This document shows positions 4,368 to 33,257 of a stretch of 64,000 nucleotides of DNA, piece by piece. Numbering within the stretch: position 1 is the stretch's first letter; each line of letters starts with the position of its first letter. Both the position numbers and the translations under genes were made by a program. Below the pieces are notes generated by a model. It was given only the letters and a program-made list of their open reading frames with translations. It was not told where the DNA came from and ran no database searches. The DNA is from a bacterium (GTDB lineage Bacteria > Patescibacteriota > Minisyncoccia > UBA6257 > 02-FULL-45-10c): positions 2,236-66,235 of the forward strand of contig JAUSKP010000048.1 in the NCBI GenBank assembly GCA_030646555.1. Reading direction: 5' to 3'.

Positions 4368-4382
4368 TAATTAAAAAAAACT

Positions 4383-5144: not shown

Positions 5145-5159
5145 TAAAAGCGATTAGTA

Positions 5160-5217: not shown

Positions 5218-5229
5218 CCACTATTCACA

Positions 5230-5562: not shown

Positions 5563-5903
5563 TGGAATATATTATTGACGCGACAAATAAAAAATTAGGC
5601 AGAATGGCTTCAGAAATAGCTTCTATTTTGCAAAATAAAAAGAGCGCCTATTATGAGCCAAGGCTCGCCGGCAGTGATAGCGTTCTTGTCAAAAATATTG
5701 ATAAGCTGGATATCGCCGCTAATAAAAGAGAGCAAAAGATATATTATCGCCACACCGGCTATATGGGGCATTTAAAGGAAAAGAAATTAGGAATTGCTTA
5801 TGCTGAAAATCCCGCCAAGGTCTTGAGAAGGACTGTGGAAAGGATGCTACCGAAAAACTTTTTGAAAATGAAAAGATTAAGACGTTTAATTATTGAAAAA
5901 TAA
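5562..5903 (+). CDS. rplM: 50S ribosomal protein L13
   Basis: MEYIIDATNKKLGR.AS.IA..L...K....YYRHTGYMG.LK. Confidence 0.9.
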   Translation: MEYIIDATNKKLGRMASEIASILQNKKSAYYEPRLAGSDSVLVKNIDKLDIAANKREQKIYYRHTGYMGHLKEKKLGIAYAENPAKVLRRTVERMLPKNFLKMKRLRRLIIEK

Positions 5904-5904
5904 T

Positions 5905-10125: not shown

Positions 10126-10135
10126 AAATTAAGCA

Positions 10136-10951: not shown

Positions 10952-10962
10952 AATATAAAAAA

Positions 10963-11511: not shown

Positions 11512-11528
11512 GGTTAAAAATAGTTTTT

Positions 11529-12548: not shown

Positions 12549-12594
12549 ATTTGTTTTATCACCGTTTTTCGCTTAAAATATTAGTACTAGTAAA

Positions 12595-13851: not shown

Positions 13852-14894
13852 AAATTTTCGATTATTTTTCAAAAAATATAGGAATTGATCTCGGCACAGC
13901 TAATTCGCTTATTTATCTGGCCGGCAAAGGCATGGTTATAAACGAGCCTTCAATTGCCGCCATCAATAATAAAACCGGACAAATAGTGGCCATCGGAGAA
14001 GAGGCTAAAAAAATGATTGGCAGAACCCCGCTTCACATTACCGTTATCAGACCGCTTATCAATGGCGTTATTTCTGACTTTGAAATGACCCAAGAAATGC
14101 TCAATTTTTTGCTTAAAAAAGCAGTTGGACCGTCAAATTTTTTAAATTTTAACAAAGCCGTCATAGGCGTACCCAGTAATCTTACTGAAGTTGAGCGTAA
14201 ATCTGTTGAAGATGCGGTGATCGGCGCCGGAGCCAGCAAAGTTTATATCGTTGAAGAGCCACTTTTGGCCGCTTTAGGAGCTAAAATGCCGATAGATGAG
14301 CCAACTTCTAATATGATCATTGATATCGGAGGGGGCACTACTGAAATAGCGGTAATTTCTATGGGCGGCATAGTAAATGCTAAGAGTATTAAAATTGCAG
14401 GTGATAAATTAAATGAAGATATTGTCAGATTTATCCGGGACGAATTTCATTTGGCTATCGGCGAACCTACAGCCGAAGAACTGAAAATAAATATCGGATC
14501 AGCGTTGCCACTAGACCAAAAGATGGACTTGCCCATAAGGGGAAGGGATATGACAACGGGACTTCCAAGAGAAATTATTGTCAGAGATACGCATATCAGA
14601 ATGGCAATTTCTAAATCTTTAAAAATAATCATAGATTCAATAAAAGAAACCATAGAAACGACTCCACCAGAATTAGTCGGAGACGTTCTTAAGAGAGGTA
14701 TCTTTATTTGCGGCGGGGGGAGCTTGTTGAAAGGCATAGATAAATTAGTTGAAAAGGAAATAACTGTAACCACCAGAATCGTTGAGGATCCATTAACCTG
14801 CGTTGCAAGGGGGGCCGGAATGATAGCCGAAAATCTCATTAAATATTCTTACCTGGTAAATAATCCTTTGAGACCCAAAGAGATTAAAATATAA
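13848..14894 (+). CDS. mreB: rod shape-determining protein MreB (paralog 2), first gene of mreBCD-pbp2 cluster
   Basis: IGIDLGTANSLIYL...NEPSIAA; GGGTTEIAV; 348 aa; immediately upstream of mreC. Confidence 0.9.
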   Translation: MKIFDYFSKNIGIDLGTANSLIYLAGKGMVINEPSIAAINNKTGQIVAIGEEAKKMIGRTPLHITVIRPLINGVISDFEMTQEMLNFLLKKAVGPSNFLNFNKAVIGVPSNLTEVERKSVEDAVIGAGASKVYIVEEPLLAALGAKMPIDEPTSNMIIDIGGGTTEIAVISMGGIVNAKSIKIAGDKLNEDIVRFIRDEFHLAIGEPTAEELKINIGSALPLDQKMDLPIRGRDMTTGLPREIIVRDTHIRMAISKSLKIIIDSIKETIETTPPELVGDVLKRGIFICGGGSLLKGIDKLVEKEITVTTRIVEDPLTCVARGAGMIAENLIKYSYLVNNPLRPKEIKI

Positions 14895-14940
14895 GGGCTT
14901 TGTCTGAGTCTTGCGAAGCGAGACGAAGCTACAAAACCTT

Positions 14941-14997
14941 ACCCTGTTAAATAATCCGTCAGTTGACGGATTGCCGCTAGGCGGCATTTAACAGGGT
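14941..14997 (+). other. Y-shaped structured intergenic element (12-bp outer stem closing two inner hairpins)
   Basis: ACCCTGTTAAAT...ATTTAACAGGGT outer stem. Inner hairpins are AATCCGTC-agtt-GACGGATT and GCCGC-tag-GCGGC. Sits between mreB2 and mreC. Confidence 0.5.
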
Positions 14998-15112
14998 GCT
15001 CAAATTTATTAGCCCGCTAAAATAGTTAACTGATTTAGTTAAAAAACAAAAAATCTAGATATTATGTGCTATTATCAAAAATTTATAATTAATTTAGCAG
15101 GATAAATTTGGC

Positions 15113-15799
15113 ATGATCTTTATCCGTTTTGCGATAATTGCGGTCTTGCTGATTTTATTATTCAGTAATAATTTAATTTTTGTTAAAAATTTATTTTCAC
15201 CTTCATTAAACGCTAAAAATGAAATTGAAAGATTGGCGCTAGAAAATGATTCTTTAAAAACAGAGCTTTATATTGCTGAAAATCTAAGCGGAAAAGAGCT
15301 TAGCGACGGCAAATGGGAGTATTTTTATTCAAAGATATTTTCTTCTTATCCGTTCAATGATCAAAATTTGATAGGCATAGCTAGCGGTGAAATAAGCGGC
15401 ATTCAGCAGTATCAAGCCGTTGCTGCCGCCCCAGGTGTTTTATTGGGGCAGATCATAAAAGTTAATAAAAATACCGCTCTAGTCAGAACGATTTTTGATA
15501 AGGATTTCATTGCTGCCGTTAAAATTGGGGAGAATAAAACCGACGCTTTATTGAAAGGAGGCATTCCTCCGACTCTGGAGATGATTGAGAAAAGTAAAAC
15601 CATTAAAAATGGGGAAGTTGTTTATAATGCGGATAAAAATTATCCATATGGCTTTAAGTTAGGTGAGGTTCAAATAGTTGAAAATAAAAATACAGATACT
15701 GCCGGATTATTTCAAAAAGCATATCTAAGAGTCGATTACAGCATCGCCTTGTTAGAAGATGCCTTAATCATAAAAAACTTTGAAGTTCTAAAAAATTAA
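15113..15799 (+). CDS. mreC: rod shape-determining protein MreC
   Basis: N-terminal TM, coiled-coil region (LALENDSLKTELY), beta-rich C-terminal domain with the G.ISG....QY motif; position after mreB. Confidence 0.7.
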   Translation: MIFIRFAIIAVLLILLFSNNLIFVKNLFSPSLNAKNEIERLALENDSLKTELYIAENLSGKELSDGKWEYFYSKIFSSYPFNDQNLIGIASGEISGIQQYQAVAAAPGVLLGQIIKVNKNTALVRTIFDKDFIAAVKIGENKTDALLKGGIPPTLEMIEKSKTIKNGEVVYNADKNYPYGFKLGEVQIVENKNTDTAGLFQKAYLRVDYSIALLEDALIIKNFEVLKN

Positions 15800-15815
15800 T
15801 TTATATTGATCTAGT

Positions 15816-16271
15816 ATGAAAGAGAGGATGGCATTTTTTTTAGACATAACGTTGGTTTCTATGATCGGTTTAGCGCAGAGCGCCTCTCTTATAATTTTTA
15901 GCGGCGTAAAACCCAATCTTATTTTGGCGGTATTGGTTGTTTTGCTCTTTTCCGAAAAAGAATTTTGGAAATACTTAATTTTAGTCTTGGTCTCTTTAAT
16001 TTGTTTAGATTATTCTGTTTTTATCTCAAAAGAAGTGGTTCTTTTTGGAGTAATAATGCTCTCAGCTTTTTATTTTAAAAAATATTTAAGTGAAAATACA
16101 TATTTAAATTTTTTCTTACTCACTTCAATTTTAACAGCAATGCTTTACCTGCTCGTTGATTACAAGTTCATTTTTAACAATTTCGGCTTATTTTTATGGG
16201 AACTATTTTATAATGTATTAATAAGTTTGGCCTTCGGATTTTTGTATAAAGGATTAAATGGCAAAGAATAA
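15816..16271 (+). CDS. mreD: rod shape-determining protein MreD-like polytopic membrane protein
   Basis: 151 aa, about 5 hydrophobic helices, lies between mreC and PBP2; call based on synteny. Confidence 0.5.
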   Translation: MKERMAFFLDITLVSMIGLAQSASLIIFSGVKPNLILAVLVVLLFSEKEFWKYLILVLVSLICLDYSVFISKEVVLFGVIMLSAFYFKKYLSENTYLNFFLLTSILTAMLYLLVDYKFIFNNFGLFLWELFYNVLISLAFGFLYKGLNGKE

Positions 16272-18096
16272 TTTTTCATCAAAGGAAGAAGTTTTTTTTG
16301 AAGAAGCTGTTTTTGACAGCTTTTCTTCGCATAAAAATTTAAATCATTTAGAGCTCCCTGTATCTAAAAAAGCTTTTGCCTTGATCGCTGCGGCGGCAAT
16401 TTTAATAGCCGGGGTAGTTTTTTTGAGGGTGTTGTATTTGAGCTCATTTATGGGGGGATTTTATAGCCTCAGATCGGAAGCCAATGTCGGCAAGGAAATT
16501 TATAATCCGAGCAATAGGGGTATCATTTACGATCGTTATGGAGAACCGTTGGTGGAAAATATTCCGGCTTTTGCTGTTTCTTTAAAAATTAAAGATTTTT
16601 CAGAAAATTCTGAAGCAGAAAAACAAGCCCTTTCCGATATATTAGAGATACCTCTATTAGAAATTGGAAATAAAATTTCCGGTCAGAACATAGAAAGATC
16701 CCCATCTTTTATTTTGGCTAGAGATGTTGATTCAGAAAAAATAATAAGCTTAAAAGCTTTAAATCTAAAAGGCGTTGAAATAATAGACGATTATAAACGC
16801 CAATATATTGACGGACCGGCTTTTTCTCACGTTTTAGGTTATACAGGTATGAGCGATAAAAGCAATGAAATAATAGGAAAAACCGGAATAGAGCTGTCTT
16901 ATGATGATATTTTAAAAGGGACTGACGGCAAAACTATCGTTTATAGAGATGCAAAGGGCAATATTTTTGATAAAAAGATAGTTGAAGAGCCTAAGAATGG
17001 GGAAAGCATAACGCTCACAATAGACGCTGATCTGCAAAATTATTTTTATAATAGCCTCAACCAAGCATTGATAAATTTAGGAAGAAATTCGGCTGTGGGC
17101 CTAGCTATCAATCCCCAAAATGGAGAAGTTCTGTCCCTTATCAGTCTGCCGAGTTTTGACAATAATATTTTTTCCAGATCGAGAAATAACGCGGAAAAAA
17201 ATAGAATTTTAAATTCTGTCTATGCTCCGCTTTTCAATAAAGCTATTTCCGGCGCTTATACGCCGGCTTCAACCATAAAACCAATGGTGGGACTGGCGGC
17301 CTTAGCAGAGGGTCTTATTGATCCAAAAAAACAAATTCTTTCTATTGGCTATATTGAAATACCAAATCCATATGATTCTACAAAGCCAAGCAGATTTTTA
17401 GACTGGAAGGCAAATGGCTGGGTGGATCTTTATTCGGCTCTGGCAAGATCCAGCAACGTTTATTTTTACGAAGTTGGCGGAGGATTTGAAGACCAAAAAG
17501 GCTTGGGAATTGATAAGCTTAAAGAGTATTGGCAAAAATTCGGTTTGGGCAAGAAAACAGGAATTGATTTGCCCAGCGAAGCCGAAGGTTTTTTGCCGGA
17601 TCCGGTTCAAAAAGAAGCCGATAAAAATGATATTTGGAGAATAGGCGATACATATAACGTCAGTATCGGGCAGGGAGATCTGTTGGTTACGCCAATCCAA
17701 TTAATTTCCCAGATTGCGGCCATAGGAAACGGCGGTTATTTTTATAAGCCGCATGTATTAAAAGATGCGGCCAGTGAAACTTTAATAGATTTTAGCAATC
17801 TAGGAAATTATATAAAAGAAATTAAAAGGGGAATGGGCGATGCAGTAAGCAAACATTATGGCACGGCGAATATGCTTAGCAGTATACCAGTGGGCATAGG
17901 CGCTAAAACAGGAAGTTCGCAGGTTTCTAATAATTTGAAAACAAATGCATTTTTTGTAGGATTTATGCCGCTGGAAAATCCGCAAATAGCAATTTTAGTT
18001 TTAATTGAAAATGCGAAAGAAGGCAGTCTGAACGCGGTTCCTGTCGCTAAGGATGTCTTGGAATGGTATTATTGGAACAGAATAGTTAATCTATAA
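16258..18096 (+). CDS. mrdA: penicillin-binding protein 2 (peptidoglycan D,D-transpeptidase)
   Basis: Transpeptidase motifs ASTIKP (SxxK), SNVYF (SxN), KTGS (KTG); N-terminal TM; 612 aa. Confidence 0.85.
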   Translation: MAKNNFSSKEEVFFEEAVFDSFSSHKNLNHLELPVSKKAFALIAAAAILIAGVVFLRVLYLSSFMGGFYSLRSEANVGKEIYNPSNRGIIYDRYGEPLVENIPAFAVSLKIKDFSENSEAEKQALSDILEIPLLEIGNKISGQNIERSPSFILARDVDSEKIISLKALNLKGVEIIDDYKRQYIDGPAFSHVLGYTGMSDKSNEIIGKTGIELSYDDILKGTDGKTIVYRDAKGNIFDKKIVEEPKNGESITLTIDADLQNYFYNSLNQALINLGRNSAVGLAINPQNGEVLSLISLPSFDNNIFSRSRNNAEKNRILNSVYAPLFNKAISGAYTPASTIKPMVGLAALAEGLIDPKKQILSIGYIEIPNPYDSTKPSRFLDWKANGWVDLYSALARSSNVYFYEVGGGFEDQKGLGIDKLKEYWQKFGLGKKTGIDLPSEAEGFLPDPVQKEADKNDIWRIGDTYNVSIGQGDLLVTPIQLISQIAAIGNGGYFYKPHVLKDAASETLIDFSNLGNYIKEIKRGMGDAVSKHYGTANMLSSIPVGIGAKTGSSQVSNNLKTNAFFVGFMPLENPQIAILVLIENAKEGSLNAVPVAKDVLEWYYWNRIVNL

Positions 18097-18100: not shown

Positions 18101-19525
18101 ATGTTCGATCTCATACCTTTAATTAAAGCAATCGGATATCTCGGTATTTTTATAATTGTTTTTGCCGAATCAGGGCTTTTTATCGGATTTTTTTTGCCGG
18201 GAGACAGCCTGATTTTTACGGCCGGTTTTTTGGCATCCCAAGGATTTTTAAATATTTGGGATCTGATATTTTTAATATTTATCGCTGCCGTTATTGGCGA
18301 TAATTTTGGCTATGCTTTCGGAAAAAAAGTTGGCCCCATGATATTCAAAAGAGAGGATTCATTTTTATTCCATAAAGATAATTTAAACAAAGCTAAGATG
18401 TTTTATGAGAAATATGGCGGAAAGGCGATAATTCTGGCGAGGTTTATGCCAGGCATTAGGACGTTTGCTCCAATTTTAGCTGGAGTCGGAAAAATGCAGT
18501 ACAGCAAATTTTTATCATTCAATATTATTGGCGGAGCTCTTTGGGGCATTGGATTACCTTTGCTTGGATACTATTTAGGGAACGTTATTCCAAATATAGA
18601 CAGGTATATTGTCTTTATAGTTCTTTTAATCATATTTATTTCAGTTTCCCCTATGATTTGGCACGTTGTAAAAGACAAAGCTACCAGGGATCGCATTTTA
18701 AATACTTTGTTAAACGCCCTGCATACTAAAGCAACAAAATATGCGGGCAAATTGGTTGTTTTTAACTGGAAAATGAATCCGGAAACTTTAGAAAGCGCGA
18801 TAGATATGGCAAGAAAAAGTGATCATAAAAATATCGTGGTTGCGCCGCCGTTCGTATTTATTGAAGAAATTGGAAAAATTATTAAAACAGCCAAACTTGG
18901 AGCCCAGGACTTATTTTATAAAAATACAAATGGAGGATCTTTTACGGGGGAAATATCTGCGTCAGAACTTGTTAATTTAGGAGTAAAATATGCAATTATC
19001 GGTCATTCGGAAAGACGGGCTATGGGTGAAAGCGATGAAATAATATCTAAAAAAATAAAAACGGCATTGGATAACGGGCTTATTCCAATACTTTGCGTGG
19101 GCGAATCCAAAAAAGAATCAGGAAGTATGAATAATGAATTAAGCGTTTCATCGAAAGAGTTTGTCAGGGATCAATTAGAAAAAGACCTATTTCTTATTCG
19201 TAATTCATCATTCTCAATTCACAATTCTCTCATCGTCGCCTACGAACCAATTTGGGCAATCGGCACCGGGAATAATTGTTCTCCGGAAGTTGCTCTGGAA
19301 ATGATCAAATTTATTAAAAGTCTTTCCGGGTCATTAGCTCCGGCGCTCGCTAAAAGCGAGGTCGGAGTCCCGACCGCTGAGCGCGTCGGGATTGTTGGTT
19401 GTAGGTTGTTAGTTTTATATGGCGGCTCCGTTAACTCAAAAAATATAAGTGATTTTCTTAAATATAAGGAGATAGATGGAGTTTTGGTTGGGGGAGCAAG
19501 TTTAGATCCAAAACTATTTTTTTGA
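18101..19525 (+). CDS. tpiA: fusion protein: DedA/SNARE-associated membrane domain + triosephosphate isomerase
   Basis: The first ~190 aa carry DedA motifs (FLPGDSLIFTAGFLA..., ILARFMPGIRTFAPILAGVGKM). A TIM barrel follows with NWKMN, IGHSERR, AYEPIWAIGTG, YGGSV. Single uninterrupted frame of 474 aa. Confidence 0.8.
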   Translation: MFDLIPLIKAIGYLGIFIIVFAESGLFIGFFLPGDSLIFTAGFLASQGFLNIWDLIFLIFIAAVIGDNFGYAFGKKVGPMIFKREDSFLFHKDNLNKAKMFYEKYGGKAIILARFMPGIRTFAPILAGVGKMQYSKFLSFNIIGGALWGIGLPLLGYYLGNVIPNIDRYIVFIVLLIIFISVSPMIWHVVKDKATRDRILNTLLNALHTKATKYAGKLVVFNWKMNPETLESAIDMARKSDHKNIVVAPPFVFIEEIGKIIKTAKLGAQDLFYKNTNGGSFTGEISASELVNLGVKYAIIGHSERRAMGESDEIISKKIKTALDNGLIPILCVGESKKESGSMNNELSVSSKEFVRDQLEKDLFLIRNSSFSIHNSLIVAYEPIWAIGTGNNCSPEVALEMIKFIKSLSGSLAPALAKSEVGVPTAERVGIVGCRLLVLYGGSVNSKNISDFLKYKEIDGVLVGGASLDPKLFF

Positions 19526-19569: not shown

Positions 19570-19667
19570 CTGTCATTGCGAGGAGTCTGCGACGTGGCAA
19601 TCCAGTTCTTTTTCTAGATTCCAGCCGTAGTTTACCCTCGAGCTACATCGGGGGCTGGAATGACAGA
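19570..19667. repeat. composite palindromic element (B-unit TGTCATTGCGAGGAGTCTGCGACGTGGCAATC + inverted A-like hairpin ...GGCTGGAATGACAGA)
   Basis: Terminal inverted motifs TGTCATTGCG / GGAATGACA. Internal 9-bp stem ATTCCAGCC/GGCTGGAAT. Lies immediately 3' of the dedA-tpiA fusion gene. Confidence 0.8.
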
Positions 19668-19721
19668 AAAATTATATGTTATTATATAATTGTATTGAGT
19701 ATTTAAATATAAATAAAAAAA

Positions 19722-21466: not shown

Positions 21467-21577
21467 TGTCATTCCGGGCTCGACCCGGAATCCAGTCCGT
21501 CATTGCGAGCCCTAAAGGGGCGTGGCAATCTAATGAATTACTAGAGATTGCTTCGTCGCAGACTTCTCGCAATGACG
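21467..21577. repeat. composite palindromic element (A-unit, B-unit, spacer, inverted B-unit)
   Basis: TGTCATTCCGGGCTCGACCCGGAATCC + GTCATTGCGAGCCCTAAAGGGGCGTGGCAATC ... GATTGCTTCGTCGCAGACTTCTCGCAATGACG. Confidence 0.8.
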
Positions 21578-21606
21578 AAGATAATAATTAAAATTAGTAA
21601 AAATAT

Positions 21607-21921
21607 ATGAACTTAGATATTAAGGCAACAAATTTAGAATTAACTCCCGCTATTAAGCAGTATATTGAAACCAAAATTTCCGGGCTTTCCAAATTTTTAG
21701 AGAAATGGGAAAAATCCGGCAAAATAAACGTTAAATTTGAATTGGCCAGAACCACTAACCACCATAGCAAGGGTGAAGTTTTTTACGCTGAAATGAATCT
21801 TAATTTGGGAGAAAAAATGCTCCGCGCCGAACATTCAGCCGAGGATGCGTATAAAGCGATAGATAAAGTGAAAGACATAATGAAAGAAGAAATTATTGAG
21901 TTTAAAGAAAAGTCTGAGTAA
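21607..21921 (+). CDS. hpf: ribosome hibernation promoting factor / RaiA family (short form)
   Basis: MNLDIKATNLELTPAIKQYIETKISGLSKFL...YKAID.V; 104 aa. Confidence 0.85.
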   Translation: MNLDIKATNLELTPAIKQYIETKISGLSKFLEKWEKSGKINVKFELARTTNHHSKGEVFYAEMNLNLGEKMLRAEHSAEDAYKAIDKVKDIMKEEIIEFKEKSE

Positions 21922-21944
21922 AAATATAATACTCGTCATTGCGA

Positions 21945-22007
21945 TTGCCGCTGAAGCAATCTATTTTAATCACGAGATTGCCACGTCGCAGACTCCTCGC
22001 AATGACA
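21945..22007. repeat. composite palindromic element (B-variant + inverted B-unit) between hpf and secA
   Basis: GTCATTGCGATTGCCGCTGAAGCAATC ... GATTGCCACGTCGCAGACTCCTCGCAATGACAGA. Ends 10 nt before the secA ATG. Confidence 0.8.
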
Positions 22008-22016: not shown

Positions 22017-24365
22017 ATGTTTAACTTTTTTTCTTTTTTTGATCCGGTCAAGAAGCTTAAACCGGTTATTGAAAAAATAAATGATCTGGAAAAAGAAATA
22101 TCTTCTTTGAGCAATGAACAGCTTTTGGAAGAAAGCAAAAAACTTTTTGAAATAGAAATAGGCGAGAATGAATTGGTAAAAGGTTTTGCTTTAGTCAGAG
22201 AAACTGCCAAGAGAAATCTTGGCCAGCGTCATTTTGATGTCCAGCTGATGGGCGGCTTGGCGCTCCACGAAGGAAGAATTGCTGAAATGGCAACCGGTGA
22301 AGGAAAAACATTGGCTTCCACCGCGCCGATATATTTGAATGCGCTTTCCAAAAAAGGCGTTCACGTGGTAACCGTCAATGAATATTTAGCCAAAAGAGAT
22401 GCTGTTTGGATGGGCCAAATTTATCATGCTTTGGGGCTTTCTGTGGCTTGTTTGATCCACGAAGGCGCTTTGATGTATGACCCAAAATACATCTCTAAAA
22501 ACGCTGAAACGCTCATAGACAGGGAAAGGGACACAACCGGCAGTTTTATGGTGCAAGGCGAGTATTTAAGGCCAATTTCGCGCAAAGAAGCCTATTTAGC
22601 GGACATTACCTATGGCACAAACCATGAATTCGGCTTTGACTACCTAAGGGACAATTTAGCTTATTCTAGCGGAAACCAGGCGCAAAGAGGGCATAATTAT
22701 GTAGTAATTGATGAAATAGACAGCATTTTAATTGATGAAGCTAGGACCCCGCTTATTATTTCTGCTCCGGACGAAGAATCCAGCGATTTTTATAAGCAAT
22801 TTTCGCGCATAGTTTCCATGCTCAAAAAGGACGAGGATTATATAATTGACGAGAAAATGAAGTCGGCCGACATCACCGACGAAGGAATAAATAAAGTTGA
22901 AAAAGCTTTAAAGATAAAAAATCTTTATGATCCGGAAAATCTGAGACTGACCCGATATTTGCAGGAAACCCTGAAAGCTTACGGTTTGTTCAGGCGAGAC
23001 AAAGATTATGTGGTAAAAAATAATGAAGTAATTATCGTTGACCAGTTTACCGGCAGGCTTATGCCGGGCAGAAGATATTCCGGCGGATTGCATCAGGCCT
23101 TGGAGGCGAAAGAAAATGCGCAAGTTCAAAATGAATCCAGGACCTATGCGCAAATTACAATTCAAAATTATTTCAGGCTTTATAAAAAGATTGGGGGTAT
23201 GACCGGCACTGCCAGGACTTCAGCCGAGGAATTTGAAAAAGTATACGGACTGAAAGTTTTAAATATTCCGACCAATAAACCTTTGGCGAGAATTGATCAG
23301 CCAGACTTGATTTATAAAAACGAAGGCGCGAAATACAACGCCATTATTGAAGATGTTAAAGAAAGGCAAAAAATGGGTCAGCCGATACTCATCGGTTCAA
23401 TTTCTATAGAAAAAAATGAAATTTTGTCTAATTTGCTTAATAAATTCGGCGTGAGACACGAAATATTAAATGCTAAAAATCATGAACGTGAGGGCGCCAT
23501 TATTGCCCAGGCAGGAAGAGTCGGGGCCGTGACAGTCGCCACTAATATGGCGGGCCGTGGTGTAGATATTGTTCTTGGCGGCAATCCGGTGGATCCGGTA
23601 GAAAACCAAAAGGTAAAAGAATTGGGCGGACTCCACGTGATCGGCACGGAAAGGCACGAGGCTAGAAGAATTGACTATCAGCTTCAGGGACGAAGCGGAA
23701 GGCAGGGAGATCAAGGCTCATCCCAGTTTTTCCTTTCCTTGGAAGATGATCTTTTGCGTGTTTTTGGCGGAGAAAGAATTAAAAATTTAATGGAAAATTT
23801 TAATATCCCTGAAAATATGCCAATTGAATCGGGGATTGTGTCCAAAGCAGTTTCTCAAGCTCAAACCAAAATTGAAGGATTTAATTTTGACTCAAGAAAA
23901 AATTTGCTTGATTATGACGACATTTTAAATAAACAAAGACTCTCTGTTTATAAGAAACGCCAGGAAATGCTTGAAAAAAGTACTCATCCACAAATACTTT
24001 CTGTTTTAGATCTGTTTTGGATGAATCATTTGGAAAGTATGGAGGCCCTGCGGGAATCTGTGAGAATAAGGGCTTATGGCCAGCATGATCCGCTTGTTGA
24101 ATATCGCCGTGAAAGCCACGTTTTATATAGGCAGATGCTGGAGGGTTTTGAGAAATGGCTTGTTGAAAATAAAGAAAAAATTGAGGAAATGATTAAACAA
24201 CAAGCAGCCTCCTCTGTCATTCCCGCGAAAGCGGGAATCCAGGAAAAGAACTGGATTCCGGGTCAAGCCCGGAATGACAACAAGATGAATGGCCAAAAAG
24301 TTGGCAGAAATGATAATTGTCCATGCGGAAGCGGAAAAAAATACAAAAAGTGCCACGGAAAATAA
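22017..24365 (+). CDS. secA: preprotein translocase ATPase SecA with C-terminal zinc-binding tail and an in-frame repeat-encoded insertion
   Basis: DEAD-like motor motifs (MATGEGKT, VIDEIDSILIDEARTPLIIS), C-terminal CPCGSGKKYKKCHGK. Residues VIPAKAGIQEKNWIPGQARND are encoded by an A-family repeat pair. Confidence 0.9.
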   Translation: MFNFFSFFDPVKKLKPVIEKINDLEKEISSLSNEQLLEESKKLFEIEIGENELVKGFALVRETAKRNLGQRHFDVQLMGGLALHEGRIAEMATGEGKTLASTAPIYLNALSKKGVHVVTVNEYLAKRDAVWMGQIYHALGLSVACLIHEGALMYDPKYISKNAETLIDRERDTTGSFMVQGEYLRPISRKEAYLADITYGTNHEFGFDYLRDNLAYSSGNQAQRGHNYVVIDEIDSILIDEARTPLIISAPDEESSDFYKQFSRIVSMLKKDEDYIIDEKMKSADITDEGINKVEKALKIKNLYDPENLRLTRYLQETLKAYGLFRRDKDYVVKNNEVIIVDQFTGRLMPGRRYSGGLHQALEAKENAQVQNESRTYAQITIQNYFRLYKKIGGMTGTARTSAEEFEKVYGLKVLNIPTNKPLARIDQPDLIYKNEGAKYNAIIEDVKERQKMGQPILIGSISIEKNEILSNLLNKFGVRHEILNAKNHEREGAIIAQAGRVGAVTVATNMAGRGVDIVLGGNPVDPVENQKVKELGGLHVIGTERHEARRIDYQLQGRSGRQGDQGSSQFFLSLEDDLLRVFGGERIKNLMENFNIPENMPIESGIVSKAVSQAQTKIEGFNFDSRKNLLDYDDILNKQRLSVYKKRQEMLEKSTHPQILSVLDLFWMNHLESMEALRESVRIRAYGQHDPLVEYRRESHVLYRQMLEGFEKWLVENKEKIEEMIKQQAASSVIPAKAGIQEKNWIPGQARNDNKMNGQKVGRNDNCPCGSGKKYKKCHGK
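24215..24279. repeat. A-family repeat pair inserted in-frame in the secA 3' end
   Basis: TGTCATTCCCGCGAAAGCGGGAATCCAG...GGATTCCGGGTCAAGCCCGGAATGACA translates in the secA frame as SVIPAKAGIQEKNWIPGQARND. Confidence 0.8.
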
Positions 24366-24391: not shown

Positions 24392-24422
24392 AAAAACCTC
24401 CAAAATTTTGGAGGTTTTTTTG
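24392..24422. terminator. bidirectional rho-independent terminator between secA and the pilin-like gene
   Basis: Palindrome CCTCCAAAATTTTGGAGG followed by TTTTTTT and preceded by AAAAA. An additional hairpin AGGAAGTCCGACTTCCT lies at 24370-24386. Confidence 0.75.
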
Positions 24423-24431: not shown

Positions 24432-26768
24432 TTACCTTATTTTTAATTTCAGTCCAGTAATTTCGGCTCTTAATTCTTCAATCTGTTTCTGCTGGTCTTG
24501 AATAGCGCCGGTCAAAATTGCTTCCATACCGGTTGGATTGTACCAATAGTATCCTTTATCATCTTGCGAGATCATTTCCGGAATAACATTTTTAACCTCT
24601 TGAGCAATAAATCCATACTTCAATCCCGGATTTGTGCCAAACTGGCTGTCGTGAAGCGCGTTCCATCTGTAAGAAACAGGGCGAAGAGCCATTATTTTAT
24701 TAAGAGACTCTCCTTTTAATTCACTATAAACATTTTTCCATCGCTGGTCAGAAGTGCTAGTCCAGGCAGTTCCCGTAGACAATCCGGCTGTTCCGACAAC
24801 ACTAAGCGCGTACGTCCCTGGCGCCGTCGTCCCAATGCCGACTTTGCCGGATGAATTTACCGTCAAAACATCACCCACTGAAGCATCGCTAACAGAAAAA
24901 TAATTCTTTCCTCCATTATAGTTTCCATAAGCGGAAGTTGGAGGCGTAAAATTAGCTGTCCATCTGGCAATCCCTTTGCTTACACGAACCTCATCTATTG
25001 CCCCGGTAAATCTTGACCCAGGGGCAGAGTCTGCGCCAAGGAAAAAGCCGGCGGTGGCGGCGTCATTGGTCGGAACCCCTGTTACGTCTTTAGTGTCTTG
25101 AAGTGCACCATCTATGTATAATTTTAGCGTGTTGCTTTGCCTAATAAAGGCGACGTGGTGCCAAGCATTATCACTGGTGTCCACCGTAGAGGTTACATCG
25201 TAGGCCGTCGCAGAGCTGTTCCAAATATACGCCCATAAATATTTCCCGCCGTAAATTTTCCAACTGGAACCGGCGCCGGTATTGTCTCCATATGCAATTA
25301 TAGGGTTAGTCCATTGACTATCCGTAGTAATCGCGCTTTTGTACCATAGATCTATAGTGAATTCGCCGCTTCCCATTTCATAGTCAACGTTATCCGTTGG
25401 TCCGGCAACATAGTCGCCTGTACCATCAAACAAAATAGAACCTGTCCCAAATTTTTGAAATGCTGTGTCAATTTGAGCGTCTGCTTGGCGCGTCATAGTT
25501 TTACTGGATTCATCGGTTATAGTAGCGGAACCGTCTGTTCCATTGGCATGGATAAGCGTTTTACTATAACTGTCATCCACACCTACTTCCGTAAATAATC
25601 CAGTATCGCGTCCTCTTACGTCAAGTGTTGATTCTGGTGTCGTCGTCCCTATGCCGACTTTGCCGGCAGTTGAAATAAATATCGTTGATGTTCCGACTGC
25701 GGTGTTTGCACTGCTAAAGTATGCAAGCTGGCCGGTAGAACCCGTCAAACTCGCGCTTCCGCCCGCGACACAAGTTCCATTTATGGCAAAACAGCCTCTT
25801 GCAACATCTATTCCGCCAGTTGAAGAAAAAGTAGATGTGGCAGTTGAAAAGTTTATGCCATTAGTATTTCCCACAGAAAACAAACTGCCGGGAGTCGTGG
25901 AGGAAATGCCGACGTTGCCGCCATTAGTGATGATTAAGTTAGTAGCCGTGGAAGAACCAATCACAAAAGCTGGACCGGTAATTCCGTTGGGATTGACAGA
26001 CAAAAGTCCCCATGGAGAAGAAGAGGCGATGCCAGTCTTGCCCTCTATTATCATTCCTGAAGTTGGCGCCGCGATAATGCCGTAAGTTGCTCCGACAGAA
26101 GCGCTGCCAGTTATACCCAGTTTGGACAGGGGCGCCGTATTTCCGATGCCGACACTACCACTTATATAAGCATTATTCCAAGGCAAAGCAGTAGTGCCGA
26201 TATCATAAAAAGTTGCGGCGCCGGGAATAAGATTAGAATCAAAAGTAGCGGCGGACACGCGGGCAATTGCCGAGCTTAAAGTGCGGGAAAAAGCGGATGC
26301 CGGATTAGTGGTGTTGTAGCTCAAAGTCAGATCAATTTGCACGGAATCATGCCCTGAATATCCGGAAACTTTTAAAAAGTTAACTGCGTCGGCAACAACA
26401 CTGCTATTGGTAAGCGGTTGGGGAGTGCCGTTAGCTTCTTCTTTATAAACTATGCCGTTTAAAATATAAAATTCCGTAGGATTTTTGGTATCGTCTTTAA
26501 ATCTCAAAACTAAAGTGGAGGTGGAAGTGCCGGCGTCTATATCAATGACAGAAGAATCCCTAATAGATCTCTGCATATTTTGCAGGGTGAAATTAAGCTG
26601 TTCATTGACTTCTATGACGGCAGTTTGCCTGCTTTTAATTTTTGTAGTGTCAATCAGAACGCCGGATAAAACTGCTCCTGTGGCGCCTAAGATGGCGGTA
26701 TAAATTAAAACTTCCATGAGGGTAAAACCACCTATTTTTTTATTTGTAGTCATAGATATATTATACAA
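24432..26768 (-). CDS. type IV pilin-like protein with tail-fibre-like repeats, LamG-like domain and C-terminal S74 intramolecular-chaperone (auto-cleaving) domain
   Basis: N-terminal class-III signal KKIGG|FTLMEVLI with Glu at +5. Gly/Ser/Thr-rich repeats of the GKVGIGTTTPESTLDVRG type. LamG-like segment (WHHVAFIRQSNTLKLYIDG...AIDEVRVSKGIARW). C-terminal ...STSDQRWKNVYSEL...LRPVSYRWN...GFIAQEVKNVIPEM...IQDQQKQIEELRAEI matches the phage tail-spike/endosialidase chaperone domain. Confidence 0.8.
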   Translation of the reverse strand: MYNISMTTNKKIGGFTLMEVLIYTAILGATGAVLSGVLIDTTKIKSRQTAVIEVNEQLNFTLQNMQRSIRDSSVIDIDAGTSTSTLVLRFKDDTKNPTEFYILNGIVYKEEANGTPQPLTNSSVVADAVNFLKVSGYSGHDSVQIDLTLSYNTTNPASAFSRTLSSAIARVSAATFDSNLIPGAATFYDIGTTALPWNNAYISGSVGIGNTAPLSKLGITGSASVGATYGIIAAPTSGMIIEGKTGIASSSPWGLLSVNPNGITGPAFVIGSSTATNLIITNGGNVGISSTTPGSLFSVGNTNGINFSTATSTFSSTGGIDVARGCFAINGTCVAGGSASLTGSTGQLAYFSSANTAVGTSTIFISTAGKVGIGTTTPESTLDVRGRDTGLFTEVGVDDSYSKTLIHANGTDGSATITDESSKTMTRQADAQIDTAFQKFGTGSILFDGTGDYVAGPTDNVDYEMGSGEFTIDLWYKSAITTDSQWTNPIIAYGDNTGAGSSWKIYGGKYLWAYIWNSSATAYDVTSTVDTSDNAWHHVAFIRQSNTLKLYIDGALQDTKDVTGVPTNDAATAGFFLGADSAPGSRFTGAIDEVRVSKGIARWTANFTPPTSAYGNYNGGKNYFSVSDASVGDVLTVNSSGKVGIGTTAPGTYALSVVGTAGLSTGTAWTSTSDQRWKNVYSELKGESLNKIMALRPVSYRWNALHDSQFGTNPGLKYGFIAQEVKNVIPEMISQDDKGYYWYNPTGMEAILTGAIQDQQKQIEELRAEITGLKLKIR

Positions 26769-26782
26769 TAATATTAGGTTAA

Positions 26783-26836
26783 GGAATATAGAATTTAGAA
26801 TATTGAATATAGAATAGGAATAGAGAATGTTGAATT
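26783..26836. repeat. AT-rich GAATATAGAAT-type low-complexity repeat (inverted copy at 27236-27275; similar motif at 34088-34135)
   Basis: AGAATATTGAATATAGAATA here versus the reverse complement of 27245-27270 (AGAATATTGAATACAGAATA) gives 19/20 identity. The two copies flank the four-helix-bundle gene. Confidence 0.5.
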
Positions 26837-27225
26837 TAAGATTCGTATCTTTTCTGGCGAGTAGCTTGCAATAAGCCTGTAAGAAGTTTATTGGCTATAA
26901 TTGATTGCTCAGCGCATTCGTCAAAATATTCTTTTGATAAATAACCAACATCCTTAGCAATTAAAAGCTGGTTTTGAAGCTCAGTCATTGAACCCTTAGC
27001 GTTGCTGTAGAAATAATGTTTTTCTTTTGAGGACCTTCTGCTAAAACCCTCGGCAATATTAGAAGTAAAAGAAACTACAGCTCTTCTCATTTGATCTGTG
27101 AGTCCATATTTTTCTTCTGAAGGAAAGTTTTTAGTTTCCTTATAAATCATCAAAACTAGTTTGTGTCCTTCCTGCCAAACTAATAAATCGGTAAATCTTT
27201 GAATTTTCTTAATTTCCTTATTCAT
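26836..27225 (-). CDS. four-helix-bundle protein (23S rRNA IVS-protein family, TIGR02436-like)
   Basis: 129 aa; LLVWQ....L...IY..T..FP..E.YGLTDQMRRA..S...NIAEGF.R.S..E...F...A.GS..E; family assignment from memory of the conserved pattern. Confidence 0.6.
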   Translation of the reverse strand: MNKEIKKIQRFTDLLVWQEGHKLVLMIYKETKNFPSEEKYGLTDQMRRAVVSFTSNIAEGFSRRSSKEKHYFYSNAKGSMTELQNQLLIAKDVGYLSKEYFDECAEQSIIANKLLTGLLQATRQKRYES

Positions 27226-27235
27226 AGTTTTAGTT

Positions 27236-27275
27236 TTTTATTCTATATTCTATATTCTGTATTCAATATTCTCAT
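27236..27275. repeat. inverted partner of the 26783-26836 AT-rich repeat
   Basis: TTCTATATTCTATATTCTGTATTCAATATTCTC; see the 26783-26836 feature. Confidence 0.5.
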
Positions 27276-27970
27276 TATACCCCAGAGGGGTCCGTGAAAA
27301 AGATAACCAAAGTTTTAAAAAGAATTTTAATATCTAGCCATAAAGACTGATTTTCCAAATAATATTTGTCGTATTCTAATTCCTTAAGAAAGGGGAGTCC
27401 TGAAGCGCCATTCACTTGAGATAGGCCGGTCAAGCCCGTTTTTGCCGCAAGAAGCTCGCGATATTCTCTGGGGTAAGCAAATAGTTCTTCCGGTTCGTGC
27501 GGCCTTGGGCCGACCAAAGAAAGCTCTCCTTTTAAAACATTTATTAATTGCGGAAGCTCATCTAATCTGAATTTTCTTAAAAACCTGCCAACTTTTGTAA
27601 TGCGGGGATCATTTTTTATCTTAAAGAATGGCCCGTCCTTGCGCTCATTTAAGCTTAATAAATCTTTCTTTTGTTTTTCAGCGCCTAAAACCATGGATCT
27701 GAATTTATACACTTTGATTATTTTTCCTTCGCTTATTCTGTCTAGTTTTATTAAAATCGGACTATTTGTCATTTTTGCGAAAAATCCCCCTTCATCCCCC
27801 TTTATAAAGGGGGAAAGAGGGGGATTAGGATTTGTTAATATTTGGGACATCGGAAGTCCAAGAAAAGAATCCATTTTTATGGCCAGCGCGATGAACGGAA
27901 AGAACGGAAGCAAAATAATTAGACCTATTAATGAGCCAAGTATGTCAATTAGTCTTTTTATGATAAACAT
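27275..27970 (-). CDS. initiating sugar transferase (bacterial sugar transferase / WbaP-WcaJ C-terminal domain family) with in-frame palindrome insertion
   Basis: N-terminal TM, KVYKFRSM, LSLVGPRPHEPEE..., LTGLSQVNG signature. Extra segment FLGLPMSQILTNPNPPLSPFIKGDEGG between the conserved AIK.DS and FF...KFRSM positions. Confidence 0.8.
   Translation of the reverse strand: MFIIKRLIDILGSLIGLIILLPFFPFIALAIKMDSFLGLPMSQILTNPNPPLSPFIKGDEGGFFAKMTNSPILIKLDRISEGKIIKVYKFRSMVLGAEKQKKDLLSLNERKDGPFFKIKNDPRITKVGRFLRKFRLDELPQLINVLKGELSLVGPRPHEPEELFAYPREYRELLAAKTGLTGLSQVNGASGLPFLKELEYDKYYLENQSLWLDIKILFKTLVIFFTDPSGV
27783..27826. repeat. 44-nt nested perfect palindrome inside the sugar transferase coding region
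   Basis: AATCCCCC-ttcat-CCCCCTTTATAAAGGGGG-aaaga-GGGGGATT. The reverse complement translates in-frame to NPPLSPFIKGDEGG. Confidence 0.85.
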
Positions 27971-28206: not shown

Positions 28207-29685
28207 ATGCGCGTTGCAATCATTCACGATTATCTAAATCAATATGGCGGAGCGGAAAGAGTACTTGAAGCTTTTTGCGAGCTTTTTCCTGATGCGCCAA
28301 TCTATACTCTTTTTTACGATGAGGAAAAAACACTCGGGAGATTTAAAGACAAGGATATTAGAACAAGTTTTTTGGATATGAACTGGATTGCCACGTCTCA
28401 CCTGTCCGAAGCTTTACGCGAAGGAGGGTCGCAGGCTTTCCCGATTGCAAAGCAATCGAGGATCCTCGATAAAGTCGGGACTCGCAATGACAGAAAGGGG
28501 GAACTGGATTCCCGCTTTCGCGGGAATGACAGAGAGATTGCTTCGGCGCAGACTTCTCGCAATGACGGAATGGAAGCGGGAATAGTGGAAAAGAAAGGCG
28601 GAATCTTTCATAAATTTGTAATAAATAATCACAGGCTTTTTATCCCGCTAATGCCTATCGCCGCTTCGCTTATGAAAGTTGACGATGACTACGATGTGGT
28701 TTTATCTTCTAGCGCCGGATTCGGAAAGGGGATGAGAGTCGGGAAAAACACTATCCATATTTCTTATTGCCATACGCCCCTGCGTTACGCCTGGGAACAT
28801 TACAAATATTTTAATTGGCAAACTTATTTAAAAATTTTATCTGCCCCGGCTTTTTGGTATTTAAGAATATGGGATAAGTGGGTTGGACGAAAACCGCAAA
28901 AACTAATCGCCAATTCCAAATATATCTCCGAAAAAATAAAAAAATATTATAAAAGAGAGGCGGAAGTAATTTATCCGCCGGTAGATACCGAAAAATTCTG
29001 CGTCAAACCGAAAGTCAAAAAAGGGGATTATTTTTTGGCTGTCGGCAGGCTTATTCACTACAAAAAATTTGACCTGATCATTCGGGCATTCAATAAATTG
29101 AATTTGCCGCTTTTAATAATCGGCAATGGTCCGGAATTGGAAAATTTAAAACAATTAGCTAAATCCCCCCGCCTTCGCCCCGACTTCGCGAATGTTTCGC
29201 CGGGCAAACAAGGCTCCCTCCTTCGCCAAGGCTATGGCGGGCAAGCTGGCGGGCAAAGTAAAATAGAGTTTTTAACTTCCATAACCGATGAGCAATTAAT
29301 TCTTTTATATAATGGCGCGCAAGCTTTTATTTTTCCTCAGGTAGAAGATTTTGGACTGGTGGCCGCTGAAGCGCAGGCTTGCGGAACGCCGGTAATAGCC
29401 CTAAACCAAGGCGGTGGAAGAGAAATAGTTGAAGACGGCAAAACCGGCATTTTGTTTAACAATCAAAATGTAGATGATCTGATTATGGCGGTAAAAAGAT
29501 TCACCCTGTTAAATAATTTCGCTTTTAGAGAAATTCCCGCAAGAGCGGGATTTAACAGGGTAAAAATAAAGCAATTTGACCAAAAATTGATCCGTGAATC
29601 TGCGCTGCGATTTTCTAAAAATAAATTTAAAAAAGCGATATTGAAGGCGGTTTATGAAGCAAGGAATGCGTCATCCCGTACTTGA
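28207..29685 (+). CDS. GT4-family glycosyltransferase carrying repeat-derived in-frame insertions
   Basis: N-terminal MRVAIIHDYLNQYGGAERV, C-terminal GT-B motifs (E..G....EA.ACG.PVIA). Two internal segments and the C-terminal NASSRT-stop are encoded by A/B/C-family repeat units. Confidence 0.8.
   Translation: MRVAIIHDYLNQYGGAERVLEAFCELFPDAPIYTLFYDEEKTLGRFKDKDIRTSFLDMNWIATSHLSEALREGGSQAFPIAKQSRILDKVGTRNDRKGELDSRFRGNDREIASAQTSRNDGMEAGIVEKKGGIFHKFVINNHRLFIPLMPIAASLMKVDDDYDVVLSSSAGFGKGMRVGKNTIHISYCHTPLRYAWEHYKYFNWQTYLKILSAPAFWYLRIWDKWVGRKPQKLIANSKYISEKIKKYYKREAEVIYPPVDTEKFCVKPKVKKGDYFLAVGRLIHYKKFDLIIRAFNKLNLPLLIIGNGPELENLKQLAKSPRLRPDFANVSPGKQGSLLRQGYGGQAGGQSKIEFLTSITDEQLILLYNGAQAFIFPQVEDFGLVAAEAQACGTPVIALNQGGGREIVEDGKTGILFNNQNVDDLIMAVKRFTLLNNFAFREIPARAGFNRVKIKQFDQKLIRESALRFSKNKFKKAILKAVYEARNASSRT
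28385..28585. repeat. tandem B-long, A and B repeat units inserted in-frame in the GT4 gene (about 67 aa)
   Basis: GATTGCCACG...CTCGCAATGACA (109 nt), then GGATTCCCGCTTTCGCGGGAATGACA, then GATTGCTTCGGCGCAGACTTCTCGCAATGACGG. Encodes ...LDSRFRGNDREIASAQTSRNDG.... Confidence 0.85.
29163..29258. repeat. C-family GC-rich hairpin repeat inserted in-frame in GT4 (encodes SPRLRPDFANVSPGKQGSLLRQGYGGQAGGQS)
   Basis: CCGCCTTCGCC...CTCCTTCGCCAAGGCTATGGCGGGCAAGCTGGCGGGCAAAG resembles the 32694-32749 and 33205-33235 units. Interrupts the conserved GT-B region between LKQLAK and KIEFL. Confidence 0.7.
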
Positions 29686-30155: not shown

Positions 30156-30298
30156 TGTCATTCCTGCGAAAGCAGGAATCCATGTTTTTAGTTCATAATC
30201 TCTGGATTCCGGGTCAAGCCCGGAATGACAGATATGAGTAGATTGCTTCCTCCTTCGCATGGCTTCGGACGGACAAGTCGGCGGCACTCGCAATGACG
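30156..30298. repeat. composite palindromic element (A fwd, A rev, B-long rev with internal C hairpin)
   Basis: TGTCATTCCTGCGAAAGCAGGAATCC ... GGATTCCGGGTCAAGCCCGGAATGACA ... GATTGCTTCCTCCTTCGCATGGCTTCGGACGGACAAGTCGGCGGCACTCGCAATGACGG. Confidence 0.8.
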
Positions 30299-33164: not shown

Positions 33165-33257
33165 TGTCATTCCCGCGAAAGCGGGAATCCAGAAAACCTA
33201 GATTCCGCATCCCTCCGCCGCAAGGCTTCGGACGGGCAAGCAAGTGCGGAATGACAG
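33165..33257. repeat. composite palindromic element (A fwd + A-long rev with internal C hairpin) upstream of prfB
   Basis: TGTCATTCCCGCGAAAGCGGGAATCC ... GATTCCGCATCCCTCCGCCGCAAGGCTTCGGACGGGCAAGCAAGTGCGGAATGACAGA. Confidence 0.8.

Follow-up and report, generated by a model that had tools for sequence, protein, structure and literature searches.

A probable modular type IV pilin with a phage-tail-fibre-like, S74-matured adhesin in the chromosome of a patescibacterium

Introduction

The 64-kb stretch of DNA analysed here (the window; positions 2,236 to 66,235 of contig JAUSKP010000048.1, assembly GCA_030646555.1) belongs to an ultra-small bacterium of the Patescibacteriota and contains, on its minus strand, a gene which we here call the fibre gene. 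The gene probably encodes a modular type IV (minor) pilin carrying an adhesin that resembles the tail fibres of phages, a protein that would be trimeric, matured by its own S74 domain and tipped with lectin modules. Including the stop codon the gene spans 24432..26753, and its 773-amino acid (aa) product is identical to NCBI entry MDO8443112.1, which is named 'LamG-like jellyroll fold domain-containing protein [bacterium]' and is placed on a 77-kb contig. The evidence comes from the leader and fold of the N-terminal part, from the fibre, lectin and chaperone modules that follow it, and from the way the family keeps its base and exchanges its tip. All features of the gene given below are on the minus strand.

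Prepilin leader and pilin module

The program-made list of open reading frames (ORFs) gave a protein of 778 aa read from the first TTG at 26768 (24432..26768, minus strand). The true start is probably the ATG at 26753, because the N-termini of more than 60 homologues align with its Met; residues are numbered from this Met throughout, and raw Pfam and PHROG coordinates run +5 relative to this numbering. No Shine-Dalgarno sequence is visible ahead of the ATG at 26753, and the mRNA of the fibre gene may be leaderless or almost so. An extended -10-like sequence, TGTATAAT (window 26754-26775, minus strand), stops 8 nt before the ATG.

The first nine residues, MTTNKKIGG (26727..26753), constitute a putative class III (prepilin) leader with a predicted PilD cut after Gly9, and they are followed by FTLMEVLIYTAILG / FTLMEVLIYTAILGATGAVLSG, so that Gly occupies position -1, Phe +1 and Glu +5. 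Across the six frames of the window such a prepilin-type motif is unique to this gene. When the query was aligned with 22 homologous N-termini (alignment A1), G9 and F10 were conserved at the level of at least 90% and E14, that is Glu+5, was invariant; E14 was also at least 90% conserved in the 150 best-scoring and in 95 family representatives. Glu5 of pilins is required for pilus assembly and is dispensable for leader cleavage. The N_methyl model (PF07963 / IPR012902) scores 18.0 bits on the query (E 0.002), the Pfam cut-off being 21.2, and it matches 71 of the 95 family representatives at E<=1e-3, the best of them at 5.6e-8.

For the N-terminal model the first 215 residues were aligned with the same 22 homologues and submitted to AlphaFold. 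In this model residues 10-167 (26253..26726) make up a pilin module, in which the hydrophobic alpha1-N segment opens a 55-residue alpha1 helix (residues 12-66) that packs against a six-stranded antiparallel sheet (residues 81-164) at pLDDT 85-94. A long alpha1 helix lying on an antiparallel beta-sheet is the lollipop fold characteristic of type IV pilins, and as modelled the module has a GspJ/PilW-like minor-pilin fold. A fold search returned GspJ-type pseudopilins and the pilins of the Thermus competence cluster as the nearest structures, with clear homologues in the PDB, and NCBIfam gave weak GspJ and PilV matches. A preliminary description of this DNA, made from the sequence alone, had proposed a prepilin leader; the Gly-1, Phe+1 and Glu+5 residues, the conservation of the motif and the modelled fold all bear this out. 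The same description had let about 450 aa of repeats begin directly after the leader. Fibre is confined to approximately residues 193-394 and 612-667, and residues 10-167 form a globular pilin domain in the model.

The pilin module passes into the fibre through a junction of the form RVSAATFDSNLIPG...G.....W (residues 165-192; 26178..26261), the most conserved segment of the family. Ten of its residues (R165, V166, S167, A169, T170, F171, D172, P177, G186 and W192) are invariant in A1, and F171 and P177 are invariant across 150 representatives. Beyond residue 167, junction included, the monomer model is disordered. Conservation of the globular fold, together with that of Glu+5 (at least 90%), suggests that the base is a working pilin and not a mere anchor.

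Fibre, lectin and chaperone modules

The proximal fibre (residues 193-394; 25572..26177) is rich in Gly, Ser and Thr. It contains three GxVGI(G/S)xTxP 'capping-loop' motifs (residues 198-209, 278-289 and 363-374) and a Cys321/Cys328 pair. A fourth copy of the motif (residues 635-646) is found in the distal stalk (residues 612-667; 24753..24920), and at the DNA level the four copies recur as a family of 33-nt repeats (D1). The tail-fibre motif singled out in the preliminary description, GKVGIGTTTPESTLDV (residues 364-379), belongs to one of these copies and, taken together with PHROG tail-fibre matches spanning residues 269-429, upholds the fibre assignment; PHROG also returns baseplate-wedge matches. 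A capping-loop consensus has been described for the MAT fibres of Bdellovibrio and for MyRF (PMC10769870), and the motif seen here equals the MAT consensus V-G-G/N-pi-x-x-P-x-x-x-L. The best PDB sequence match of the proximal fibre is the Bdellovibrio MAT protein Bd2133 (8OND), although weak (E 0.013), while the distal stalk matches the final 32 residues of the mature Bd3182 tip (8OJN; E 5.5e-5). The mature Bd3182 tip terminates at its own S74 cleavage site, and the distal stalk ends with ...AGLSTGTAWTST, where autocleavage is predicted between Thr667 and Ser668. In Bd3182, 60 Å are spanned by 135 residues (PMC10769870); with such spacing the approximately 258 fibre residues would give, as a rough extrapolation, a fibre of about 10-15 nm, LamG included.

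Between the proximal fibre and the distal stalk lies a LamG / concanavalin-A-like jelly-roll (residues 395-611, Pfam core 443-593; 24921..25571). Laminin_G_3 (PF13385) recognises it with 82.3 bits (E 5.1e-23; cut-off 27.6) and Laminin_G_2 likewise passes its Pfam threshold, which substantiates the jelly-roll that had been read from the sequence. The module is 31-40% identical to the LamG domains of cyanophage baseplate-wedge and Rhizobium-phage ConA-like virion proteins, 28-38% identical to most of its matches on IMG/VR contigs, and weakly similar to neurexin and laminin LG domains. Two 33-nt direct repeats, at 25634..25666 (encoding AGKVGIGTTTP) and 24818..24850 and identical at 30 of 33 positions, flank the LamG cassette exactly (residues 375-634). 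From its family and context, the jelly-rolls most likely bind glycans on the host cell.

The protein ends with a Peptidase_S74 intramolecular chaperone (residues 668-773; 24435..24752), which closes with a C-terminal 30-residue helix. PF13884 matches it with 48.1 bits against a cut-off of 22 (E 1.4e-12), and the signatures SDQRWK, LRPVSYRW, GFIAQEV and IPE are all found. In an alignment of 19 S74 sequences Ser668, Lys673, G714, I716, A717 and P725 are invariant; Ser668 (nt 24750-24752) and Lys673 (nt 24735-24737) are the predicted catalytic residues. The dyad motif S668-D-Q-R-W-K673 aligns with ADLRAK of MyRF (a Ser-to-Ala crystal mutant) and with SDERLK of a tail fibre, and a motif scan recovered SDxRxK in the S74-bearing homologues. 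The domain was modelled with AF2 at pLDDT 85-96, and Foldseek related the model to MyRF ICA (7DC3, E 4.5e-6), endoNF (3GW6, E 3.8e-4) and GA-1 (3GUD, E 8e-3) with probabilities of 0.99-1.0. The claim of an S74 chaperone domain is thus confirmed by profile, invariant dyad and fold, and of the three profiles that had been named for checking, Laminin_G_3 and Peptidase_S74 score above their cut-offs on the query and N_methyl does not (18.0 against 21.2). A released fragment of 110-120 aa had been anticipated; the piece predicted here is 106 aa (668-773).

The role of the C-terminal S74 domain is almost certainly to chaperone trimerisation and not to act as an effector peptidase, and therefore pilins of this kind would be obligate homotrimers. 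Proteins of the 'pilin + peptidase S74' kind have been interpreted differently in print; the present view corrects this and would bear on how the tips of type IV pili can be built.

Family and exchange of the tip

A word-indexed search returned 432 relatives, the closest of which are Patescibacteria proteins that share residues 1-381 with the query and diverge thereafter. With a profile of the pilin module, 541 clusters were found at E<=1e-30 and 2,304 at E<=1e-10 among 1.84 billion representatives; in all of the 150 best-scoring representatives the module is N-terminal, and the proteins range from 189 to 1,150 aa in length. In a scan of a single genome for each species 96 relatives turned up, almost all from metagenome-assembled genomes (MAGs) of Patescibacteria, comprising Harrison-, Wolfe-, Lipton-, Brenner-, Colwell- and Jorgensenbacteria, Paceibacteria and MAGs labelled Saccharibacteria.

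The base of these proteins is constant and the tip appears, from the domains recognised, to be chosen from a menu of receptor-binding-type modules. Among 95 representatives Pfam detected Peptidase_S74 in 17, phage Collar in four and Kelch in two, and C1q, F5/8 type C, YadA head, dockerin, fn3 and RCC1 in single cases. LamG, and hence the combination of LamG with S74, occurs in the query alone (1/95). A survey of related genomes for the same architecture, as had been suggested, is accordingly successful for the pilin-S74 part and finds no second pilin-LamG-S74 protein among these representatives.

Sequence divergence rises from the base to the tip. When the locus was compared with three syntenic genomes, the flanking SecA, LepA, GT4 and Bac_transf proteins were 81-94% identical, the pilin module 73-81% and the proximal fibre 36-65%, and the distal part was 34% identical or without detectable homology. 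The distal half therefore reads as a swappable cassette, the orthologues in this slot keeping the pilin base and differing in their tips. One relative that lacks LamG (P0002) is 86% identical to the query over its final 142 residues and 68% over its N-terminal part, and its two homology breakpoints coincide with capping-loop motifs, namely with the 30/33-nt direct repeat around the LamG cassette. Because such breakpoints and repeats fit the 'tip swapping' pattern of phage receptor-binding proteins and MAT fibres, we infer that the conserved capping-loop motif is where recombination exchanges the modules.

In the more distant loci L086-L088 (L-numbers denote loci of relatives) the pilin-S74 gene is again an orphan. 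Genes for Y1 (IS200/RAYT-like) transposases flank it in L086 (9196-9891, 12007-12693) and L088 (9007-9720), which is consistent with a recombination-prone locus. Another arrangement is seen in L039, a Parcubacteria MAG (9923-16592, 540-3803). Here a 342-aa family member consists of the pilin module and a small C-terminal domain, and is followed by two small membrane proteins and then by S74 fibres of 742 and 822 aa with simple N-terminal membrane anchors; four more pilin-like genes lie 6-9 kb upstream. The arrangement resembles a 'split' form of the fusion found in the window.

Genomic context

The window is an ordinary segment of a Patescibacteria chromosome filled with housekeeping genes, among them those for ribosomal proteins, RpoA, two MreB, MreC, PBP2, TIM, SecA, LepA, RF2, FtsX and BipA, and further for DnaX, ScpAB, MraY, PGK, a MurC-like protein, GltX and others; judging by sequence, the small ORFs at 2874-6414 encode ribosomal proteins and RpoA. 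The 64 kb yielded no gene for a capsid, terminase, tail or integrase, and none for PilD (Peptidase_A24), other machinery of the type IV pilus (T4P) or other pilins. Likewise, no T4P machinery or pilD was present within 10 kb of the gene in the relatives inspected (L001-L005, L086-L088).

The gene order GT4 <- | Bac_transf -> pilin-fibre -> | <- SecA is repeated in L001-L005 and in many species representatives. The fibre gene and secA are convergent, and between them lies a 12-bp hairpin with T/A runs on both sides (24392..24419, unstranded), likely a bidirectional terminator as judged from its sequence. Upstream of the fibre gene and in the same orientation is a gene for a Bac_transf (PglC-like initiating sugar transferase) protein (27275..27970, minus strand; Pfam annotation), whose adjacency is conserved in L001-L010, L012-L014, L016-L018, L050 and L085, with a gap of only 13 nt in L002. 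A GT4 glycosyltransferase gene (window 28207-29685, plus strand) is divergent from Bac_transf, and this neighbourhood, too, is conserved in relatives. Conservation of the Bac_transf/GT4 neighbourhood is a hint of possible O-glycosylation of the Ser/Thr-rich fibre.

Between Bac_transf and the fibre gene the window carries a gene of the PF05635 four-helix-bundle family ('23S rRNA IVS protein', bAvd-like; 26836..27225, minus strand; Pfam annotation), flanked by 52-nt inverted repeats (26784-26835 and 27220-27271). As in the window, a PF05635 gene immediately precedes the pilin-family gene on the same strand at 10 of 85 related loci (L021, L024, L030, L031, L036, L041, L046, L055, L076 and L084), and PF05635 ORFs number only 18 in the 1.3 Mb of loci examined. 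The bracketing inverted repeats, and the absence of the gene from this slot in the nearest syntenic genomes, give it the look of an inserted cassette. The bAvd-like neighbour brought a diversity-generating retroelement into consideration, and this candidate was rejected: the Pfam-scanned ORFs contained no reverse-transcriptase domain and no long TR/VR-type repeat was found, the only repeats that turned up in the gene being the 33-nt motif repeats.

The GC content at third codon positions (GC3) of the fibre gene is 0.40, within the 0.32-0.41 of its neighbours. Its total GC content is 0.45 versus approximately 0.37, a rise due to its Gly/Ala/Thr/Ser content and not to foreign origin. A prophage origin of the region was ruled out on the basis of the housekeeping neighbours, the conserved synteny and the normal GC3.

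Several other features of the window deserve mention. GC-rich palindromic REP/MITE-like elements are found at 19581-19668, 21547-21997, 24212-24281, 27782-27814, 28480-28569, 30159-30229 and 33166-33192; they resemble the Rickettsia palindromic elements, and their peptide footprints include AKAGIQ, FRGND, AFAGMT, PRKRES and SLRRGN. When compared with the 85-87%-identical orthologues of L002, several of them prove to be in-frame insertions within conserved genes, namely in SecA (aa 740-750), Bac_transf (aa 36-70) and GT4 (aa 58-134, 322-351 and 433-452). At 18101-19525 (plus strand) a single 474-aa ORF joins a VTT/DedA-type membrane domain to triosephosphate isomerase, a fusion conserved at 436 aa in L002-L005. 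Two MreB paralogues (9118-10125 and 13848-14894, plus strand) accompany MreC and PBP2 (15113-15799 and 16258-18096), which points to rod-shape or elongation machinery being maintained in a small genome.

Proposed function and alternative explanations

The protein would be made in five steps. The class III signal peptide would insert the prepilin in the membrane, where a prepilin peptidase would cut after Gly9. The approximately 600 extracellular residues would then trimerise from the C-terminus on the template of the S74 chaperone, as expected from the family, after which the Ser668-Lys673 dyad, to judge from its motif and fold, would cut Thr667|Ser668 and free the 106-aa fragment. The mature Phe10-Thr667 chain would form a three-chain fibre with three GspJ-like pilin modules (the fold being that of the model) at its base, a capping-loop stalk and, near the end, three LamG jelly-rolls that most likely bind glycans of the host cell. 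Finally, the three pilin modules would seed or cap a type IV pilus in the manner of CofB/TcpB, with the fibre shown at the pilus tip. By analogy the chances of this last point, presentation at the tip, are about even. Patescibacteria, which are monoderm-like, would have no secretin to limit a bulky pilus tip.

Host attachment, which the preliminary description had considered plausible, is the best-supported function of the fibre because of the base-to-tip gradient of divergence at a syntenic locus and of the published precedents in Saccharibacteria and Bdellovibrio (PMC11623550; PMC10769870). As to whose fibre it is, its housekeeping context, conserved synteny and normal GC3 speak for a cellular rather than a viral gene. 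A tail-fibre gene of a phage or prophage, whole or as a remnant, that by coincidence begins with a hydrophobic N-terminus would account for the PHROG tail-fibre and baseplate-wedge matches, for the similarity of LamG (31-40% identity) to phage virion proteins and for the S74 domain typical of phage fibres. Such an origin is nevertheless extremely improbable, as the window is housekeeping throughout and devoid of capsid, terminase, tail and integrase genes, the slot between Bac_transf and SecA holds an orthologue in many genomes, no phage record covers at least 80% of the fibre part, GC3 matches that of the neighbours and the N-terminal 167 aa fold as a pilin in the model. Hardly more credible is the view that S74 is an effector peptidase displayed on a filament, as IPR012902-IPR030392 proteins have been read (PMC8179133). 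It takes its strength from the MEROPS/InterPro name 'peptidase S74' and the intact Ser-Lys dyad, and is countered by the fact that every S74 domain characterised so far works a single time, in cis, chaperoning trimerisation before its release (PMC10769870), by the matches of the modelled domain to the structures of endoNF, T5 pb1 and MyRF, and by the position of S74 here, behind a fibre, a capping-loop motif and a conserved cleavage-site context. That the gene encodes a minor pilin of a competence- or secretion-type filament, the fibre of which catches a non-cellular ligand (DNA, a polymer or a particle), is improbable too, even though the nearest folds are GspJ-type pseudopilins and Thermus competence-cluster pilins and the weak NCBIfam matches are to GspJ and PilV: the LamG, C1q, Kelch, Collar and F5/8C tips of the family are cell-surface or glycan-binding modules, the tip diversifies like receptor-binding proteins, and the Pfam scan found no DNA-binding module.

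The main rival to presentation at a pilus tip is a surface fibre anchored in the membrane with no pilus at all, in which the class III peptide would serve export and processing and the alpha1-N helices would form a threefold anchor, similarly to MAT or to archaeal class III substrates that do not build pili. No T4P genes lie within 10 kb at any examined locus, MAT fibres operate at the surface of the cell (PMC10769870), the geometry of a helical filament does not readily accommodate a C3 trimer of pilin modules, and the S74 fibres beside the family member of L039 have plain membrane anchors, so that a pilus is not needed to display such fibres. On the other hand, a whole GspJ-like pilin domain is conserved over 2,304 clusters (E<=1e-10) and Glu+5 is retained at the level of at least 90% in the 150 best, neither of which an anchor needs; homotrimeric minor pilins at pilus tips are known (CofB/TcpB) and orphan minor-pilin genes are common. 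We regard the membrane-anchored fibre as possible and rather unlikely.

Several points weigh against the modular pilin proposed here. The gene is an orphan amid housekeeping genes, without T4P machinery or pilD nearby, and the N_methyl score of the query sits under the threshold of Pfam. Fitting a C3 trimer to the staggered tip of a helical pilus is a difficulty, and in the monomer model the junction is disordered. Moreover, trimerisation, autocleavage, the binding of glycans and entry into a pilus are each predicted, and the L039 fibres demonstrate the simpler mode of display just mentioned.

A more far-reaching proposal can be put forward only tentatively, and we consider it doubtful. In one large lineage of Patescibacteria a single conserved, fast-diversifying chromosomal locus might encode a pilus-tip device for host recognition, a homotrimeric fibre similar to phage receptor-binding proteins whose three pilin bases nucleate or cap the pilus and whose cassettes (LamG, S74-only, C1q, Kelch, Collar and others) are swapped at the GxVGIGTTxP motif. 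The PF05635/bAvd-like gene (in regulation or diversification) and the co-transcribed PglC-like transferase (in fibre glycosylation) could be part of the same system.

Comparison with known systems

The appendage had been thought novel in the preliminary description. However, pilin-LamG and pilin-S74 architectures are already in the 2021 census of Raynaud et al., cellular S74 fibres for prey recognition are known, and NCBI already names relatives of the protein 'tail fiber domain-containing protein'. The census of modular pilins lists IPR012902-PF13385 (229 proteins), IPR012902-IPR030392 (29) and pilins with YadA head and S74 (8) (PMC8179133, Dataset S1), takes S74 as 'peptidase activity' and includes among modular pilins PilB (vWA) and PilC (ConA-like lectin) of Streptococcus sanguinis (PMC8179133). 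With a pilin module joined to PF13385 and PF13884 the protein has the composition that defines a modular pilin (PMC8179133), but the triple pilin-LamG-S74 combination is not in Dataset S1, and the graft is a fibre of approximately 600 aa expected to force homotrimerisation, not a single globular domain on a short linker. In our literature search no paper paired 'Peptidase_S74' with 'pilin', the architecture being mentioned only in the 2021 census; the top-ranked literature paired neither 'intramolecular chaperone' with 'pilin' nor 'Patescibacteria' with 'S74', and no description of this pilin family or of its trimer implication was found. The protein class is one that was catalogued in 2021 and, as far as the literature searched shows, never studied, and LamG+S74 on a pilin is a variant of it.

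The nearest functional and structural analogues of the fibre part are the MAT fibres of Bdellovibrio bacteriovorus (Bd3182 and Bd2133; 8OJN and 8OND; Caulton et al. 2024, PMC10769870), which are also the top PDB hits by sequence for the stalk and the cleavage-site context. Common to them and to the present protein are a cellular, non-phage origin in a bacterium living on others, a conserved base, exchangeable tips, capping-loop motifs and an S74 domain with the SDxxxK dyad; MAT trimers are known, whereas the trimer here is predicted. At their N-terminus MAT proteins carry a Sec signal peptide followed by a beta-rich N-domain of approximately 130 aa that has no PDB homologue and whose anchor is unknown (PMC10769870). 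In contrast, the base described here has a class III leader and, in the model, a pilin fold and differs, as judged by description, from the MAT N-domain. The organism is of another phylum, and sequence similarity is limited to the motifs and the S74 domain.

With regard to the base, CofB of the CFA/III pilus of enterotoxigenic Escherichia coli and TcpB of the TCP pilus of Vibrio cholerae are homotrimeric type IVb minor pilins composed, as here, of a pilin domain, a linker and C-terminal beta-domains. They are thought to initiate assembly, occupy the tip and bind a ligand, and offer a precedent for three identical pilin modules capping a pilus (PMC8179133). Phage fibres and tailspikes (K1F endosialidase 3GW6, T5 pb1 4UW8 and GA-1 gp12 3GUD) and MyRF (7DC3) share the S74 fold, the Ser-Lys dyad and a preceding beta-helical stalk, and the LamG module is of the type seen in phage baseplate and fibre proteins. 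Unlike in phage fibres, the N-terminus is joined to a pilin module and not to a virion adaptor, and the gene lies in the chromosome in conserved synteny and is passed on vertically. Among the pilins of Patescibacteria, lectin-like C-terminal domains are already known from PilX1 (jelly-roll, L-type-lectin-like) and PilX2 (beta-propeller) of the Saccharibacteria strain TM7x, PilX2 being experimentally required for host binding, with which sugars compete (Grossman et al. 2024, PMC11623550). T4P are reported to be near-universal in Patescibacteria (PMC11623550). The likeness to PilX1 and PilX2 lies in the domain make-up described for them, and those pilins are encoded within T4P loci (PMC11623550), in contrast to the gene studied here.

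Implications

Episymbionts of the Patescibacteria (also known as CPR) make up roughly a quarter of bacterial diversity, and how they find and hold their hosts is largely obscure beyond a few cultured Saccharibacteria. The family described here, with more than 500 sequence clusters, is a concrete candidate for host attachment, as it combines a conserved pilin base with a tip that resembles, and evolves like, a phage receptor-binding protein. Owing to its fixed chromosomal position the locus may be usable as a marker of host range among closely related MAGs. The pilin base also offers an identifiable anchor, the piece that is missing for the MAT fibres of Bdellovibrio, and the comparison between the two suggests that modules of phage fibres are used, convergently or in common, by bacteria that live on bacteria. 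If the tentative proposal of a host-recognition device at the pilus tip were true, this locus would set the host range of the episymbiont, and the fibre would be a cellular tail fibre carried on a retractable filament.

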